From: a virus
Lineage: Duplodnaviria; Heunggongvirae; Uroviricota; Caudoviricetes
IMG/VR virus record: IMGVR_UViG_2778261247_000015
Coordinates: 1 to 4,579 of that record
Length of the DNA: 4,579 nucleotides
Direction: 5' to 3' (one strand)
A program made the translations under genes and the position numbers. Positions 1-4,579 of this stretch are shown piece after piece; position 1 is the stretch's first letter; the number at the start of each line of letters is the position of its first letter. The notes below the pieces were generated by a model that was not told the origin of the DNA, did no database searches, and saw only the letters and a list, made by a program, of their open reading frames with translations.

Positions 1-420
1 ATGACGGATTATCAGCCATACAGGAAAGGAACTGTGCTTGCCCCAACTGGGCCATGCAATCATCTTCATGTGATTTGTAATGATCCTGTTTATTACCCCG
101 TTAACGATTGTTATTGTGTTTTAGTTGTTAATATTTCTAGTATCAAGGATGGTGTACCCCACGATCCGTCTTGTGTCTTGAATTCTGGTGATCATCGCTT
201 TATCAAGCATCCAAGTTATGTTGTTTACGCTGAAGCTATAATTTGGCGAGTGGATAACATGGTTAGAAAGCAGCGATCGGGTGAGATTTCTGTTCATGAT
301 GATATGCCAGAAGCTACATTCAATAGAATTCTGGACGGTTTTGATATATCTGATGAAGTTACGCCAAAGAACCTTAAATTTAAAAATAAATATTGCGTAT
401 CATCTATTGATGATGAGTAA
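1..420 (+). CDS. Hypothetical Cys/His-rich protein (139 aa), unknown function; first gene of an AT-rich convergent cassette
   Basis: Complete ORF from ATG at 1 to TAA at 418-420; a start further upstream cannot be excluded because the window begins here. GC is visibly lower (about 38-40% by eye) than the roughly 50% of the minus-strand operon. Six Cys and several His (NHLHVICNDP, HDPSCV, DCYCV). No family recognised. Confidence 0.5.
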   Translation: MTDYQPYRKGTVLAPTGPCNHLHVICNDPVYYPVNDCYCVLVVNISSIKDGVPHDPSCVLNSGDHRFIKHPSYVVYAEAIIWRVDNMVRKQRSGEISVHDDMPEATFNRILDGFDISDEVTPKNLKFKNKYCVSSIDDE

Positions 421-459
421 ACAACAGGAATTGTTTCGGTATAACTTCTGGAGTTTTCT

Positions 460-633
460 ATGGAAGATCAAAAAGCAACCAAGCCACAGGTTAAGTTCGA
501 CACAATGAAAGCATTCGCAGGTATGGGGGCTGCTGTTGAAGTTCTGATGAAGGCTGCTCCTAATGCGTTCACTCACGCTACTGTCTCTGGTAAAGAGCAG
601 CAGGGTAAGCTTCGTCGTCGCAAAGCAGCATGA
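460..633 (+). CDS. Small hypothetical protein (57 aa, MEDQKATKPQVKFDTMKAFAGMGAAVEVLMKAAPNAFTHATVSGKEQQGKLRRRKAA), basic C-terminal tail
   Basis: Absent from the supplied ORF track; found by manual translation. ATG at 460 is preceded by GGAG (450-453) at 6-nt spacing; TGA at 631-633; a strong intrinsic terminator follows 24 nt downstream. Begins 40 nt after the stop of the 1-420 gene, so probably co-transcribed. Confidence 0.5.
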   Translation: MEDQKATKPQVKFDTMKAFAGMGAAVEVLMKAAPNAFTHATVSGKEQQGKLRRRKAA

Positions 634-652
634 TCATAGCTGGTGCTTTTTG

Positions 653-682
653 AAAACCCGCCTTCAGGCGGGTTTTTTCTTT
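653..682. terminator. Bidirectional rho-independent terminator between convergent transcription units
   Basis: AAAA-CCCGCC(657-662)-TTCA-GGCGGG(667-672)-TTTTTTCTTT. Perfect 6-bp GC-rich stem with 4-nt loop; T-run on the plus strand and A-run (T-run for minus-strand transcripts) on the other side. Sits 24 nt after the 460-633 stop and immediately after the minus-strand stop at 681-683. Confidence 0.75.
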
Positions 683-962
683 AGTGATGTTCTTTGTCCT
701 TCTGTTTGACTGTTCTGACCTGTTCCCACTCGATACGTCCTTCTTCTCGCCTTTTGTCTATGTATTCCGCAAGATCTTGAATATTGATGCAACGTTTTGC
801 TTTTTGTGATGTGCCGATGCGATATGTTGGAACGGGCAACTTACAAGCGTTTGCTTTTGCCTCTGCCGTGGCTGGACTCATACCAAAGTACTTTTGGCTA
901 ACTGCTGAGAGTTCAATGTTTGGGGTATTGAATTCAGCCATCAGTAAAAACAAGGTGTTCAT
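681..962 (-). CDS. Excisionase-like / PrtN-family DNA-binding protein (93 aa from MNTLFLLMAEF...)
   Basis: ORF 681-989; the GTG at 989 and ATG at 974 lack an SD, whereas ATG at 962 is preceded by GGAG at 6 nt, so 962 is the preferred start. Sequence ...SAVSQKYFGMSPATAEAKANACKLPVPTYRIGTSQKAKRCINIQDLAEYIDKRR resembles PrtN/excisionase-like small DNA-binding proteins of enterobacterial prophages (recalled similarity, not searched). Last gene of the leftward operon, ending at the terminator. Confidence 0.55.
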   Translation of the reverse strand: MNTLFLLMAEFNTPNIELSAVSQKYFGMSPATAEAKANACKLPVPTYRIGTSQKAKRCINIQDLAEYIDKRREEGRIEWEQVRTVKQKDKEHH

Positions 963-998
963 AATTTTCTCCATCAAAACCGGCTGCACCCGGGAAAA

Positions 999-1571
999 TC
1001 ATAATTCTGTGCTGGTGGCAGGAATTAATTTCTGCCAGATAGCGGAAACATATTTTGCCTGATGACGGGCATCAGCCAGGGCGTTGTGCCGTTCGCCATC
1101 GAAAGGCATGTCCATTTTGGGGTCGAATCCGATGGAACGCCCAAGCGTAACGATCGTGCGCACATCGTGATCATTCCAGTACGCCCACGGGCAGATTTGT
1201 CCTGCTCGCTCGTAAGCTCCACGTAAAATTACGTTGTCGAAGTTGGCTCCGTTACCCCAGACTTTTAAATATTTCGTATTGTCTGCGTGCCGATTGATGA
1301 AATGGCTCAGTTCAGAGAGTGCATCGCTGATCGACAAAGTATCATCAATGCAGATTGCAGCTCGTGCTTCAGGGCTTTGTTTCAACCACCACAGGATGGT
1401 ATCGCCGTCAGGTGTAGCTCCTTGCTTCATAGCACTGTCCAGGCTGACAACCGCATAGAATTCTTGTCCGATGTCTCCGGTTTCTGGGGTGAAGAACACC
1501 GCGCCAATAGAAACGATCGGCGCATCCTTATTTTTCCCCATCGTCTCAAGGTCGATCATTAAGTTGTTCAT
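999..1571 (-). CDS. DEDDh-family 3'-5' exonuclease (DnaQ-like fold, phage-type)
   Basis: Translation carries Exo I (MIDLETMG, D-x-E), Exo II (WGNGANFDNVIL) and Exo III (HNALADARH, H-x4-D) motifs. ATG at 1571 overlaps the upstream TGA by 1 nt (TGATG) with AGGAGG 7 nt upstream; the track's GTG at 1574 is a less likely start. Confidence 0.8.
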   Translation of the reverse strand: MNNLMIDLETMGKNKDAPIVSIGAVFFTPETGDIGQEFYAVVSLDSAMKQGATPDGDTILWWLKQSPEARAAICIDDTLSISDALSELSHFINRHADNTKYLKVWGNGANFDNVILRGAYERAGQICPWAYWNDHDVRTIVTLGRSIGFDPKMDMPFDGERHNALADARHQAKYVSAIWQKLIPATSTEL

Positions 1572-2167
1572 CACTTCACCTCCTGCGGCGGTTCCGGTAG
1601 CGGCATCCAGTGAGTTGCTTGCTCAATACCATTACCCGGCTTAATCGTTGCATCTCCGCGCCGAAAAGTGCTTCCGGTATAGCGTGCGGAGCATATTAGC
1701 GGTTCAACCAGAGAGCTATCGAAATTCACCGAAATGAGCACGTTCTGATTCTTCTCAGGCATTCGCTCACTACAGCTTATCCAACTATCCGGAGTTACCG
1801 GAGAGTTGGTTGACGTTTCCGAGGTTTCCCGAAAATTATTGGTTGACGAATCCTTATTTTCCCGAAAGTTTCCAGCCTGAAGCATGGCGGCGCGGTGACA
1901 CCAGATAATCCAGCCAAGCGCCATATCCCATGCCATGTATTCGCTATCGCCATTTTTTGCCCTGCGACGATCTACAGATTCCCCGAAACGCTTCTCCATA
2001 AATAATTCATAGGCTGCCCGTTCATCCGATACTGCTTCCAGCGATGCCAGCGCAATCCGTGCCAGCTCTTCCGCTTCTTCTGCTGGCAGTACAACGTTGC
2101 TACCAGGTCCGTATGTTTTGCGCCACTCCTTGATTGTCAGCAGTCGCTCTTTGGTAATAGTGGTCAT
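1571..2167 (-). CDS. DUF551-domain prophage protein (198 aa) with an internal 11-aa tandem repeat linker
   Basis: ATG at 2167 with AGAGGA 7 nt upstream. C-terminal region (...GNGIEQATHWMPLPEPP) resembles the DUF551 domain common in lambdoid early regions (recalled). The central linker FRENKDSSTNN/FRETSETSTNS is encoded by a 33-bp tandem repeat. Confidence 0.7.
   Translation of the reverse strand: MTTITKERLLTIKEWRKTYGPGSNVVLPAEEAEELARIALASLEAVSDERAAYELFMEKRFGESVDRRRAKNGDSEYMAWDMALGWIIWCHRAAMLQAGNFRENKDSSTNNFRETSETSTNSPVTPDSWISCSERMPEKNQNVLISVNFDSSLVEPLICSARYTGSTFRRGDATIKPGNGIEQATHWMPLPEPPQEVK
1806..1871. repeat. 33-bp imperfect tandem direct repeat (2 copies) inside the DUF551 gene
   Basis: Copy A 1806-1838 TTGGTTGACGtttccgaggTTTCCCGAAAatta; copy B 1839-1871 TTGGTTGACGaatccttatTTTCCCGAAAgttt; about 25 of 33 positions identical by manual alignment, in frame (11 codons). 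Confidence 0.7.
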
Positions 2168-2170
2168 GTG

Positions 2171-2320
2171 TTAGTCCTCTGTAGCAGGTGATACGCCGTA
2201 GTTGCATTCTTCATAGAATATGTCTCTGCCTATTTCTTCGGCATCCTCTGGCGTGTCTGCTTCAAACTCAACAACCTTGCAATCATTAAATCCTTCGATA
2301 GTCACGATGTACTTAGCCAT
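2171..2320 (-). CDS. Small highly acidic hypothetical protein (49 aa, MAKYIVTIEGFNDCKVVEFEADTPEDAEEIGRDIFYEECNYGVSPATED)
   Basis: The track gives a 76-aa ORF from 2401, but that would overlap the upstream gene by 80 nt. The internal ATG at 2320 has GGAG about 7 nt upstream and sits 1 nt after the upstream TGA (2322-2324). 14 Asp/Glu against 3 Lys/Arg. Stop TAA at 2171-2173 lies 3 nt before the next start. Confidence 0.45.
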   Translation of the reverse strand: MAKYIVTIEGFNDCKVVEFEADTPEDAEEIGRDIFYEECNYGVSPATED

Positions 2321-2321
2321 A

Positions 2322-2921
2322 TCACTCTCCTTTGATGCGAATGCCTGCGGCGCGTGGCACATTAACTTCCACGATGCGCACAGTTGGTTTGTACATCTCA
2401 ATCGCTGTCAGCCAGTCAGCGCCGGTCATATGCTTTTCTGCATCGCCATTAGTCCATTGAACCGGCACACCAATAGCTTTCATCGCAATTTCTATTTCCC
2501 CGGCAATGGCGCTTTTCCCGCAACCAGTAAAACCAGAGACAACGACAAGAACTTCGCCTTTGGCTGGTTTTATTTCCCGTGCTTCCAGTTCAGCAATACG
2601 CTTACTCCCATCCGAGATAACACCTTCGTAATACTCACGCTGCTCGTTGAGTTTTGATTTTGCTGCCTCCAGTTCGTCCAGTAGTGCAATCACATCAGGG
2701 TCACTGTCATCAACTACTGTTACGCGTGATTTTTCATAATGCTCGTCGGCAAGTGTTCGACCAATTTTGAAATCTCCATCACCACCATAACTGGAGCAGG
2801 CATAAGTGACATGTGCTCCAGATATACGCTGTATTGACATTTCCTCGCCACAAACAGAGCATTCAGGTACTGGCTTAGGTGAATAACGTTCCCGTAGCGC
2901 CTGATAATCAATCTCGCTCAC
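2322..2921 (-). CDS. Ea22-like prophage early-region protein (putative); N-terminal Cys cluster and central coiled-coil-like segment
   Basis: GTG start at 2921 overlaps the upstream TGA (GTGA) with AGGAGG 7 nt upstream. N-terminus MSEIDYQALRE... and overall architecture recall ead/Ea22-like proteins; CSVCGEEM...YACSSYGG suggests a zinc-ribbon-like element; LLDELEAAKSKLNEQREYYE...IAELEARE is coiled-coil-like. Family assignment is low confidence. Confidence 0.5.
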   Translation of the reverse strand: MSEIDYQALRERYSPKPVPECSVCGEEMSIQRISGAHVTYACSSYGGDGDFKIGRTLADEHYEKSRVTVVDDSDPDVIALLDELEAAKSKLNEQREYYEGVISDGSKRIAELEAREIKPAKGEVLVVVSGFTGCGKSAIAGEIEIAMKAIGVPVQWTNGDAEKHMTGADWLTAIEMYKPTVRIVEVNVPRAAGIRIKGE

Positions 2922-3403
2922 TGGTTGCCCTCCTTCATAAAAATAATCCAGTGGGTCTTGTCACCCTTTCCTGTTCGTTGACCGATAACAGGCTTTCTGT
3001 CGGTCAGTGCCAATATCTGGCGAACAGGTATTTGCGTTTCATTCCATTTAAAAATCAGAACGCCGTATGGCCACAACACACGAAAGGCTTCTTTGAATCC
3101 CTGCCGTAAATCATCACGCCAGGTATCTTTATTCAGCCGTCCATATTTCTTTCCCATCCAGGCGTTATCACCAACACGCTCAAGATGCGGAGGGTCGAAT
3201 ACAACCATCGAAAAGGATGCGTCTGCAAATGGTAGTGCACGAAAATCAGCTATCAGGTCAGGACTGATAATCAGGCGTCGTCCATCACACAATGTGTGCT
3301 CTTCCTTTCTGATATCGCTAAATATCGCCCGGTCGTCATTCTTATCGAACCAGAACATGCGACTGCCACAGCACATGTCGAGGATTGCTGCATGTCCAGT
3401 CAC
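2918..3403 (-). CDS. Small SAM-dependent methyltransferase-like protein (putative phage N6-adenine/N4-cytosine DNA methyltransferase, about 161 aa)
   Basis: ILDMCCGSRMFWF resembles SAM-binding motif I and VVFDPPH resembles the (D/N)PP(Y/F/H) catalytic motif IV of amino-methyltransferases. Preferred start is GTG at 3403, overlapping the upstream TGA (GTGA) with AAAGGAGG 6 nt upstream; the track's ATG at 3436 would overlap the upstream gene by 37 nt. Confidence 0.55.
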   Translation of the reverse strand: MTGHAAILDMCCGSRMFWFDKNDDRAIFSDIRKEEHTLCDGRRLIISPDLIADFRALPFADASFSMVVFDPPHLERVGDNAWMGKKYGRLNKDTWRDDLRQGFKEAFRVLWPYGVLIFKWNETQIPVRQILALTDRKPVIGQRTGKGDKTHWIIFMKEGNQ

Positions 3404-3750
3404 TGGCTGCCTCCTTTGCGAAGCCGTTCCGCCCATTCTTCAAGGGATTTCTCTGCATATTCACCGGACAGGCCATCAATCGGATGCGATTCATTAGCTA
3501 ACTCTTCTTTTGCTGACAGAATCATGCGTGTAACGTCGAAAACTTCAGCCAAAGGCTTATTGATAAATCCGTGATTGAAAGCAGCAGCAAGACGGCTTGC
3601 GGTATAGTTAATACCCTCGTTGCGAGCCTCAGCACGTACTTCATCGAATTTACGCACCAGATACTCAGCATTTGTTTCATTCACTTTCAGATCTCGCGGT
3701 ACACATTTCCCGCGAAGAAACCCTTCCATTTCGAAAACATTCATGCGCAT
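3400..3750 (-). CDS. Hypothetical protein (116 aa), unknown function
   Basis: ATG at 3750 with GGAG about 8 nt upstream; overlaps the HD gene stop (3741-3743) by 10 nt. No recognisable motif; predicted helix-rich, acidic C-terminus (EEWAERLRKGG). Confidence 0.55.
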   Translation of the reverse strand: MRMNVFEMEGFLRGKCVPRDLKVNETNAEYLVRKFDEVRAEARNEGINYTASRLAAAFNHGFINKPLAEVFDVTRMILSAKEELANESHPIDGLSGEYAEKSLEEWAERLRKGGSQ

Positions 3751-4277
3751 TTGCGTAACTCCGATAACTCGTTAAAACGTTCCATAAACATCCCATAGGC
3801 ATGGCCTGGCGACAGTGGAATAACTTTGAACATCTCTGTTGCCGGGATACCTTCCAGAACAGGCCAGAAAGAGCCATCATCAAGCCCGAGATCACGGCGT
3901 TCGGTTGCCAGCATAATGAGATCGGCATATTTCACTGGCGTGCTCATAACAGGAGGTAACCCGTATTTCTCACGGATTACGGCGTCTATTTTTTCTTCCA
4001 TCCGTTTATAGTCAGGAAGAAGTCGTTTCAGTGGCGCGGGGATGTCCTGGCAATATGCTTCTGTTGCATCATGCATTAACGCTTCAAAAGCAAATTCCTG
4101 CGGCACCAGCTGGCTGCAAAGCACCGCATGCTGGGCGACACTGTAGAAGTGTGAAAGATGTCCTGCAAAGCGACAGATATTTGAAAGGGAAACTGCGATA
4201 TCGTTAATCACGATGTCGTCTTTATTTATCTTGTCATAATAAAAATGCTTCCCGGAAAAAGTTTTAATAAATGACAT
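3741..4277 (-). CDS. HD-domain phosphohydrolase (YfbR-like 5'-deoxynucleotidase family, putative)
   Basis: Metal-binding pattern H...H...HD...D: NICRFAGHLSHFYSVAQHAV then LMHDATEAYCQDIPAPLK, closely matching the HD-domain signature of YfbR-type nucleotidases. The track start at 4289 is GTG; ATG at 4277 has GGAG 6 nt upstream and is preferred. Confidence 0.8.
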   Translation of the reverse strand: MSFIKTFSGKHFYYDKINKDDIVINDIAVSLSNICRFAGHLSHFYSVAQHAVLCSQLVPQEFAFEALMHDATEAYCQDIPAPLKRLLPDYKRMEEKIDAVIREKYGLPPVMSTPVKYADLIMLATERRDLGLDDGSFWPVLEGIPATEMFKVIPLSPGHAYGMFMERFNELSELRKCA

Positions 4278-4371
4278 TTCGTTCTCCACTTTATATGCGC
4301 TGCACCGCGCTGAATTCTGCTAAAAGGAAGCTCTCACCATCCGGTGATTATTGAGTTAATTACGTTTCCAT

Positions 4372-4393
4372 AAATGCCCCCGCAGGGGCATTT
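4372..4393. promoter_or_regulatory. Perfect 9-bp inverted repeat (AAATGCCCC-cgca-GGGGCATTT) in the intergenic region upstream of the HD gene
   Basis: Positions 4372-4380 are the exact reverse complement of 4385-4393 with a 4-nt loop. No U-tract on either strand, so not a canonical intrinsic terminator; could be an operator, an RNA stability or processing hairpin, or a weak terminator. Confidence 0.4.
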
Positions 4394-4405
4394 GCAGTAA
4401 TGAAA

Positions 4406-4579
4406 TCAGGCGGTGAAAGTACCAATAAAGGTTTCTACTTTGCTGTCTTTGAATTTCTCAACAAGCAGATCACGAAATTCGTTAGCCATTTCTTCCTGCA
4501 TCGCTTCCAGCTGAATAATGCGCAGAACCAGTACAGGACGATCGCCAGTGATAATGCTGAGGCGTAATTTAAACGGACG
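4406..4579 (-). CDS. 5'-truncated hypothetical CDS (C-terminal 57 aa ...[56 protein letters not shown])
   Basis: Open minus-strand frame runs from the window edge (4579) to TGA at 4406-4408 with no internal stop. Missed by the track because its start lies outside the window. Function unknown. Confidence 0.4.

Follow-up and report, generated by a model that had tools for sequence, protein, structure and literature searches.

A conserved RNA fold between yfdQ and yfdR on the early-left transcript of lambdoid prophages, with a possible role in post-transcriptional control

We analyzed a 4,579-nt stretch of a caudoviricete record (IMGVR_UViG_2778261247_000015, positions 1 to 4,579), hereafter the window, and in particular the gap between two of its minus-strand genes, yfdQ (DUF2303) and yfdR (HD 5'-deoxynucleotidase). 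The stretch shares 98-99% identity with phage mEp460 and relatives of that phage, Stx2-converting phages among them, and represents the early-left operon of a lambdoid prophage of the mEp460/SfV/CPS-53 type. In Escherichia coli K-12, the corresponding site lies within the CPS-53/KplE1 prophage. The leftward early operon of mEp460 runs from the repressor through yfdP, yfdQ, the gap, yfdR, yfdS and further genes to an exonuclease and an excisionase. A published survey found the yfdP/yfdQ/yfdR cluster to be frequent in lambdoid early-left operons and noted that a relative, phage LLS, lacks a homologue of the antiterminator N, with an RNA antiterminator suggested as a possibility (PMC12315714).

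A preliminary description, made from the letters of the window alone, had drawn attention to a perfect inverted repeat in the gap, AAATGCCCC-cgca-GGGGCATTT (4372-4393), and to the gap as the only sizeable one among the minus-strand genes. Both observations hold. The palindrome contains zero mismatches, and the other junctions between the minus-strand genes around it overlap or span at most 36 nt. A search of the window for the palindrome pattern with up to three mismatches returned one site; 0.01 were expected from shuffled sequences, and 2 of 200 shuffles had any match. The gap itself is longer than the 115 nt first given. For yfdR, the conserved start codon is ATG (4275-4277); the GTG at 4287-4289 falls within the Shine-Dalgarno (SD) sequence GUGGAG, which leaves 128 nt untranslated.

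The palindrome makes up the apical stem of a long irregular hairpin, H1, the first helix of a larger RNA module. A repeat search showed that the inverted repeat continues past 9 bp into imperfect 22-nt arms (4359-4380 and 4385-4406). On the transcript, 4385-4393 pairs with 4372-4380 around a UGCG loop (4381-4384) to form the upper stem, which is the palindrome, while AUUAC (4397-4401) pairs with GUAAU (4359-4363) in a lower stem that is backed by covariation. The 9-bp upper stem holds a core of five G-C pairs, and the isolated 22-mer hairpin, identical in the fetched sequence L086, has a folding free energy (ΔG) of -15.0 kcal/mol. The repeat had thus been read correctly but its extent had not, as only the apical 22 nt of a conserved element of ~115 nt were noticed. 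H1 comprises ~20 pairs (~23 helical steps) in Enterobacteriaceae, 14 pairs in the window and 9-14 bp in distant homologues. In the longer homologues, the last two bases of the yfdQ stop codon are paired in the lower stem by the model; in the window the lower stem begins at 4401. Among 83 near-identical viral contigs, the 22-mer was altered in only four. Two of these changes were C-to-U in the 5' arm, which keeps a G·U pair in the transcript, and one lay in the loop.

To assess conservation, a YfdQ alignment was used to fetch 80 loci, with one genome per species. A stable hairpin was present 0-25 nt past the yfdQ stop codon in 74 of 74 distinct loci, down to 35% protein identity, and was built from many different stem sequences. 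Its median ΔG was -16.6 kcal/mol, whereas segments drawn at random from these loci had a median of -10.3 kcal/mol (Mann-Whitney p = 3e-26). The gaps of 34 enterobacterial loci were then aligned by MAFFT and folded by RNAalifold. In this alignment, 90% of cells were paired, as opposed to 38-47% with slid partners, and 16 pairs were changed on both sides; 0 of 500 shuffles reached the observed values. H1 alone accounted for 20 pairs, 92% paired, of which 10 were changed on both sides. A covariance model built from the module (R1) was used to realign 38 sequences, giving 93% paired cells, 20 of 30 pairs changed on both sides and covariation at 5 of 5 H3 pairs. As the latter alignment was fitted to the model, the MAFFT result is the independent one. 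H1 and two further helices, H2 and H3, all covary across ~40 species.

The pairing also has a strand. Cells of H1 held 75 G·U and 15 A·C combinations, and R1 scored 98-131 bits on the sense strand but did not exceed 31 bits on the antisense strand. Taken together, these two results assign the fold to the sense strand, i.e. to the early-left mRNA. Single-stranded DNA of the same strand may carry the fold as a formal alternative. A sense-strand fold exists at this locus and is under selection. Mean pairwise identity was 72% for the module, 70-74% for the yfdQ coding sequence and 62% for the start of yfdR.

From 5' to 3', the module consists of H1, an A/U-rich linker, H2, an unpaired conserved stretch and H3, followed by a 5-10-nt A/U-rich spacer, the SD and the start codon (Table 1). 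The linker is variable among homologues. H2 occurs as the compensatory variants UCGCC/GGCGA, UCACC/GGUGA and UUGCC/GGCAA. The unpaired stretch that follows it in the enterobacterial alignment contains the conserved GGGAUUCGUGCAACCAAAAU; the family consensus across positions 4311-4333 is GGGAUUCGUGCAACCAAAAUUCA, from which the window has diverged to GAGCUUCCUUUUAGCAGAAUUCA. The stem of H3 is GCG/CGC in the window, or GCGC/GCGC in the other register, and in the alignment it varies freely around a near-invariant NUGCAG hexaloop, (G/U/A)UGCAG. A fourth helix, Px, is probably formed between the 3' flank of H1 and GGGAUUCG. Because its register shifts between classes of sequence, counting of alignment columns was dropped and duplex energies were compared with shuffles instead. 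The observed energies beat the shuffles (p<=0.05) in 61% of 64 distinct sequences, with a mean z of -1.9; for the window and K-12 variants, z was ~0.

Table 1. Positions of the module elements, their borders and a related hairpin within the window.
Feature	Position	Strand	Basis or remark
yfdQ (DUF2303) stop codon UGA	4406-4408	-	RefSeq annotation of identical sequence; alignment
H1, long irregular hairpin	4359-4401	-	Repeat search, RNAalifold, covariation
Possible helix Px, 5' strand GGAAAC (partner 4326-4331; encloses H2)	4364-4369	-	Duplex-energy test
A/U-rich unpaired linker UAACUCAAUAA between H1 and H2	4348-4358	-	Alignments
H2, hairpin UCACC-GGAU-GGUGA (5 bp)	4334-4347	-	98-99% paired
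Conserved unpaired stretch, including Px 3' strand GCUUCC (4326-4331)	4311-4333	-	Alignments
H3, short GC stem with hexaloop GUGCAG (4300-4305)	4297-4310	-	Alignment, covariation, motif scan
UAUAAA, piece of the A/U-rich H3-SD spacer, not a promoter element	4290-4295	-	Promoter scan, alignment
yfdR Shine-Dalgarno GGAG	4284-4287	-	True start AUG 4275-4277
Second H3-type hairpin CCGG-GUGCAG-CCGG	980-993	-	7 nt before excisionase SD 969-972; AUG 960-962

The module is self-contained and occurs in two settings, directly behind the stop codon of yfdQ or as the last part of a long non-coding pL leader. Viral contigs were scanned for TCGCCNNNNGGCGAGGGAT and then with R1 and tblastn, yielding 68 module instances. 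Of these, 33 adjoined a yfdQ stop codon (class 1) and 35 had no yfdQ (class 2; 43-80 bits). In the latter, a non-coding leader precedes the module, the repressor and operator region lies further upstream, and the genes that follow differ. Across instances, the gene following the module may be yfdR, a gene for a 119-aa protein or others, and the end of the module always lay 5-10 nt ahead of its SD. For example, L190 has the order cI-like repressor, two small open reading frames (ORFs), AT-rich operator-like region, non-coding leader of ~480 nt, module and first gene, and the leader includes a terminator-like hairpin with a U run at ~7390-7440. Within 6910-7540 of this class-2 sequence, the AT-rich region carries repeated, operator-like TTGGTAC motifs, and the leader has no sense ORF of at least 45 aa. 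A coding reading of the module, by way of an in-frame GTG ORF in L190, was rejected: loop lengths differ by non-multiples of 3, the stems covary, and the class-1 copies follow a stop codon.

Carriage of the module is widespread in E. coli. The gap region was found in 2994 of 5426 complete genomes, and a 60-mer spanning H1 in 2702 complete genomes. The median carrier genome had one module place, and the module is not dispersed in the manner of repetitive extragenic palindromic (REP) sequences. R1 matched once in the whole of mEp460 and once in each fetched locus.

Hairpins like H3 are not confined to the module. We scanned 2.0 Mb of fetched loci for stems of 4-7 bp closed by a NUGCAG loop, using loops of the same composition as controls. 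NUGCAG hairpins numbered 454, against 51-146 for the control loops, and 74% of them had an SD within 22 nt downstream (controls 5-21%). After deduplication, the 171 SD-linked copies contained 58 distinct stems, with GUGCAG in 122 of the loops and UUGCAG in 44. The distance from hairpin to start codon peaked at 16-18 nt, and the fixed spacing from SD and start points to a connection with translation. The genes preceded include yfdP, yfdR, the 119-aa gene, excisionases of several unrelated families and, in the rightward operon, Rha/KilA-N antirepressor-like genes. The second H3-type hairpin of the window precedes a gene assigned as an excisionase by PHROG; the start listed for this ORF, a GTG at 989, is probably wrong, the conserved start being the ATG at 962. 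All four NUGCAG hairpins of mEp460 (L287) are in early operons (30803-30818, 29421-29432, 25990-26003 and 37119-37134), and the one in front of the KilA-N gene reaches into the final codons of rusA. The early regions of lambda and HK022 had no NUGCAG hairpins, and torI of K-12 has only a degenerate one. The UGCA at the core of the loop is self-complementary, so such loops might pair with one another instead of binding a protein.

We propose, with a little less than even confidence, that the gap carries a cis-acting structured RNA module of ~115 nt, part of the leftward early (pL-type) transcript in lambdoid prophages that lack N, and that this module exerts post-transcriptional control. H1 would be a stable barrier and processing hairpin at which the upstream RNA segment ends and 3'-to-5' exonucleases are blocked, and its 20-bp enterobacterial form would make a plausible RNase III substrate. 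The A/U-rich linker past H1 would be a likely entry site for endonucleases. Px/H2 and H3 would then constitute a structured 5' leader of the downstream cistron. With its NUGCAG loop ~17 nt before the start codon, H3 could act as a translational operator or stabilizer, as could the same hairpin before yfdP, xis and antirepressor-like genes. The net effect would be to set expression of yfdR and the distal genes independently of yfdP-yfdQ. Of the alternatives offered in the preliminary description, an RNA processing or stability hairpin comes closer to this proposal; a protein-binding operator does not agree with the single copy, the covarying arms or the G·U excess.

The intercistronic stabilizer or processing hairpins known from other systems, which uncouple the levels of upstream and downstream cistrons, include those of REP in malE-malF, the RNase III sites found between early genes of T7, and lambda sib. 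Like these, H1 is a stable stem-loop right after a stop codon in a polycistronic mRNA, with an A/U-rich segment next to it; unlike the intercistronic stabilizers, it sits within a multi-helix module with conserved unpaired bases and also occurs without an upstream cistron. Translational operators adjacent to the SD include the E. coli thrS operator hairpin, the coat-protein operators of MS2 and Qbeta, and Mu com/mom. H3 shares with them a short, loop-specific hairpin at the 5' edge of the ribosome-binding site, ~17 nt before the start codon and repeated before several genes, but differs in that no binding protein is known for it.

Several observations weigh against this proposal. Px is weak and the H3 stem is just 3-4 bp in the window and in K-12, and the window copy may be a partly decayed module. 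The yfdQ-less class offers H1 no upstream cistron to protect, and H1 of distant homologues, at 9-14 bp, is too short for RNase III. Support from covariation comes in part from the model-fitted alignment. A generic barrier or stabilizer leaves the NUGCAG loop and the conserved unpaired GUGAAGCG and GGGAUUCGUGCAACC unexplained, which suggests a specific ligand; the near-invariant loop and conserved unpaired bases point to a putative specific partner. Lastly, the 3'-end mapping supplements consulted for E. coli K-12 had no entry at yfdQ or yfdR. CPS-53 is probably poorly transcribed in the laboratory. One supplement (Adams et al. 2021) enters K-12 coordinate 2473888 (+) as 'internal' to yfdP, in a table that we took, with its heading unchecked, as the comparison with bicyclomycin (Rho inhibition). 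If that is what the table compares, Rho silences the CPS-53 early-left operon upstream of the hairpin under laboratory conditions.

Other readings place the function of the gap in duplex DNA. The perfect twofold symmetry of the palindrome and its 4-bp spacer would suit an operator for a phage repressor or Cro-like dimer, yet we regard this as extremely improbable. The preliminary description had suggested a search for further copies of the palindrome; the half-site AAATGCCCC occurs only once in the 44.5-kb genome of mEp460 (a phage 98% identical to the window), far from the immunity region, where an operator would have several related copies at promoters. The palindrome lies mid-operon, 14 nt past a stop codon. 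Its arms vary by compensatory substitution across species rather than being conserved as sequence, and the fivefold ratio of G·U to A·C, together with the R1 strand scores, indicates a single-stranded sense fold and not duplex recognition. The TATAAA-like element is likewise not supported as a promoter. It had been placed 10-15 nt upstream of the SD; it is in fact 2 nt upstream, such that a transcript begun there would be without the SD. A minus-strand scan of the window returned no sigma-70-like site, and homologues have a variable A/U-rich spacer at this position. An antisense promoter in the gap was also considered and, judged by eye, had poor hexamers or spacing. A third DNA-level reading takes the hairpins as short conserved boundary sequences, i.e. 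recombination joints for module shuffling without a role in expression, a concept present in the literature (PMC3029335). Similarity to the window indeed stops next to or within H1 in L003, L004 and H72, the module is joined to differing upstream and downstream genes, and H3-type hairpins stand ahead of the first gene in several exchangeable cassettes. In this respect the module resembles the PeSL cassettes of T4 and lambdoid boundary sequences, which are repeated intergenic stem-loops at gene-module borders in mosaic phage genomes. It differs from them in having no promoter and in stems that covary without conservation of sequence. Joints should keep their sequence, whereas the stems here vary with compensation (58 distinct H3 stems), the G·U asymmetry of H1 indicates selection on RNA pairing, and the constant distance from hairpin to SD and start points to a connection with translation. 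As a full explanation, recombination joints therefore seem improbable to us, although the boundary and expression roles are compatible with each other. At two of these breakpoints, yfdQ and H1 are fused to an unrelated 783-nt gene (L003, 2480-2560), and yfdR and the module are fused to a leader, with H1 reduced to its GC core (L004, 2660-2710).

The remaining readings have the RNA act on RNA polymerase. H1 might be a leaky intrinsic (Rho-independent) terminator or attenuator, such that yfdR and the distal early-left genes would be transcribed less than yfdP-yfdQ. Its GC-rich 5-bp core stands between an A-run and a U-run (AAAUGCCCC...GGGGCAUUUAU), as in a bidirectional terminator; U accounts for 4-6 of the 8 bases past this core in Enterobacterales, homologues in Morganella and one in Vibrio have full U tracts (GGCGGCAUUUUUAUAUU), and the phages concerned have no N homologue (PMC12315714). 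The preliminary description had judged the hairpin less likely to be a terminator, and H1 is indeed not a canonical one: it has the GC-rich stem-loop but no unpaired 3' U tract of about 7-9 nt. Its remark that a U-tract is lacking was not strictly correct, as the short U run AUUUAUGG follows the stem on the transcript, although just 4 of the 8 bases there are U and H1 was not called by the terminator scan. Moreover, these U's take part in the lower stem, whose covariation runs over ~11 further pairs; a terminator would not need that. The hairpin is kept while the U tract is absent in Psychromonas, Marinobacter, Comamonas and Phytopseudomonas homologues, and the depositors of mEp460 annotated five terminators without including H1. 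Partial termination at H1 may occur, but we consider it unlikely that termination explains the element. Antitermination by the module, either as a put-like RNA or as a nut-like site for an unrecognized N analogue (boxA-like CGCUCAACC, spacer AAAAUUCA, boxB-like H3), strikes us as quite doubtful. In its favor, N is missing from module-bearing phages, and for LLS a put-like mechanism was suggested (PMC12315714). Like the protein-independent put of HK022 (PMC9378689), a candidate mechanism where lambdoid phages lack N, the module places a pair of neighboring irregular stem-loops, H1 and Px/H2, within an early transcript. In some variants the sequence is CGCUCAACC-AAAAUUCA-GCGCG[GUGCAG]CGCGU, compared with CGCUCUUA-AAAAUUAA-GCCCU[GAAGA]AGGGC for lambda nutL. 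The resemblance to nut is loose: the module, too, lies in the early-left transcript, and its 3' part has a boxA-like pentamer in a minority of sequences, a matching AAAAUU spacer and a GC stem of 5 bp that closes a conserved loop. The boxA position (consensus upstream of boxB, (C/U)GCUCUU(U)A) is, however, CGUGCAACC in the majority, which is not boxA, CGCUCAACC in a minority and CUUUUAGCAG in the window, and the loop is the hexaloop NUGCAG rather than a GNRA-like pentaloop. Unlike nut or put, the module is single-copy, with no second copy in the rightward operon of either mEp460 or the 12-kb L190. It is longer than put and lies 1.3 kb into the operon, after yfdPQ, or else after the leader terminator, not promoter-proximal or just past PL/PR upstream of terminators; in the leader class it is downstream of the leader terminator, and a scan of the window found no strong terminators after it. 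R1 had no match in the early region of HK022 (20000-32000), and STnc100, an Rfam family discussed below, was also not found in HK022. A crude screen for arginine-rich motifs recovered lambda N and gave no convincing analogue in mEp460 or L190. Finally, H3-type hairpins adjoin SDs, and nut sites do not.

Beyond post-transcriptional control by the module itself, we tentatively entertain a broader and rather less likely proposal, in which the module and the SD-proximal NUGCAG hairpins form an unrecognized post-transcriptional regulon of N-less lambdoid prophages. A loop-specific factor or UGCA loop-loop pairing would co-ordinate translation of excision, antirepression and early-left functions, and H1/Px/H2 would be a specialized entry or processing platform. 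The module is carried by about half of complete E. coli genomes, K-12 included, and by Shiga-toxin-converting phages. If it is a real regulatory RNA, it provides a handle on control of the early-left operon in N-less lambdoid phages. As this operon includes the excisionase gene, such control would bear on prophage induction and on mobilization of Stx phages. It also bears on how gene cassettes remain expressible after mosaic exchange, and the NUGCAG hairpin is a simple, mutable motif.

No described RNA matching the element was found. Rfam 15 at gathering thresholds returned no family in the window or in 20 diverse loci, and at E<=10 on the gap alone gave only chance-level matches. STnc100 (RF02076) was considered for the gap and rejected, as its full-length match scored 14.3 bits, no better than chance given a gathering score of 47, and the helices that it aligns are not equivalent. 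The literature surveyed on yfdQ and yfdR dealt with protein function and contained nothing on transcripts or RNA structure, and no account of the element turned up in searches on DUF2303, boundary sequences and GUGCAG hairpins. None of the RefSeq or GenBank records inspected annotates the module. An STnc100-like RNA does neighbor the module in L004, as a distinct leader RNA (2789-3012, minus strand; 43.4 bits) that lies in the pL leader and ends ~80 nt before the module. Another lies upstream of yfdP in L005 (3791-4006, minus strand; 39.5 bits, gathering score 47). The STnc100-like RNA of E. coli prophage pL leaders includes a strong terminator, and RefSeq has a 'frameshifted hypothetical protein' over part of it.

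The module is also relevant for annotation, since gene callers often run the downstream yfdR or 119-aa ORFs (e.g. L190 7533-8036) upstream through it. The PHROG profiles phrog_318 (YfdR) and phrog_14171 (119-aa protein) have N termini that are 96 and 32 residues longer, respectively, than the real proteins. In Proteus columbae and an Endozoicomonadaceae metagenome-assembled genome (L140, L156, L158), the gene after the post-yfdQ hairpin is not yfdR but resembles a single-stranded DNA-binding protein, a call based only on the N-terminal sequence (…VNKVILIGNLG…). Its position beside yfdQ homologues hints at a role of DUF2303 in DNA metabolism.

Two further structured elements were found outside the gap. 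At 652-677, the window has a perfect 11-bp hairpin (AAAACCCGCCT/AGGCGGGTTTT) that has plus-strand T runs and is preceded by A runs; this is the terminator of the plus-strand ORF at 1-420 and possibly also the end of the leftward operon after xis. In L002 (10634-10822) and mEp460 (~33.4-33.6 kb), a coding sequence annotated as a putative antirepressor (gp41) encloses adjoining matches to IsrK (67 bits) and C4 antisense RNA (83.6 bits). The pair resembles an immI-like module of the P1/P7 type in a lambdoid phage.
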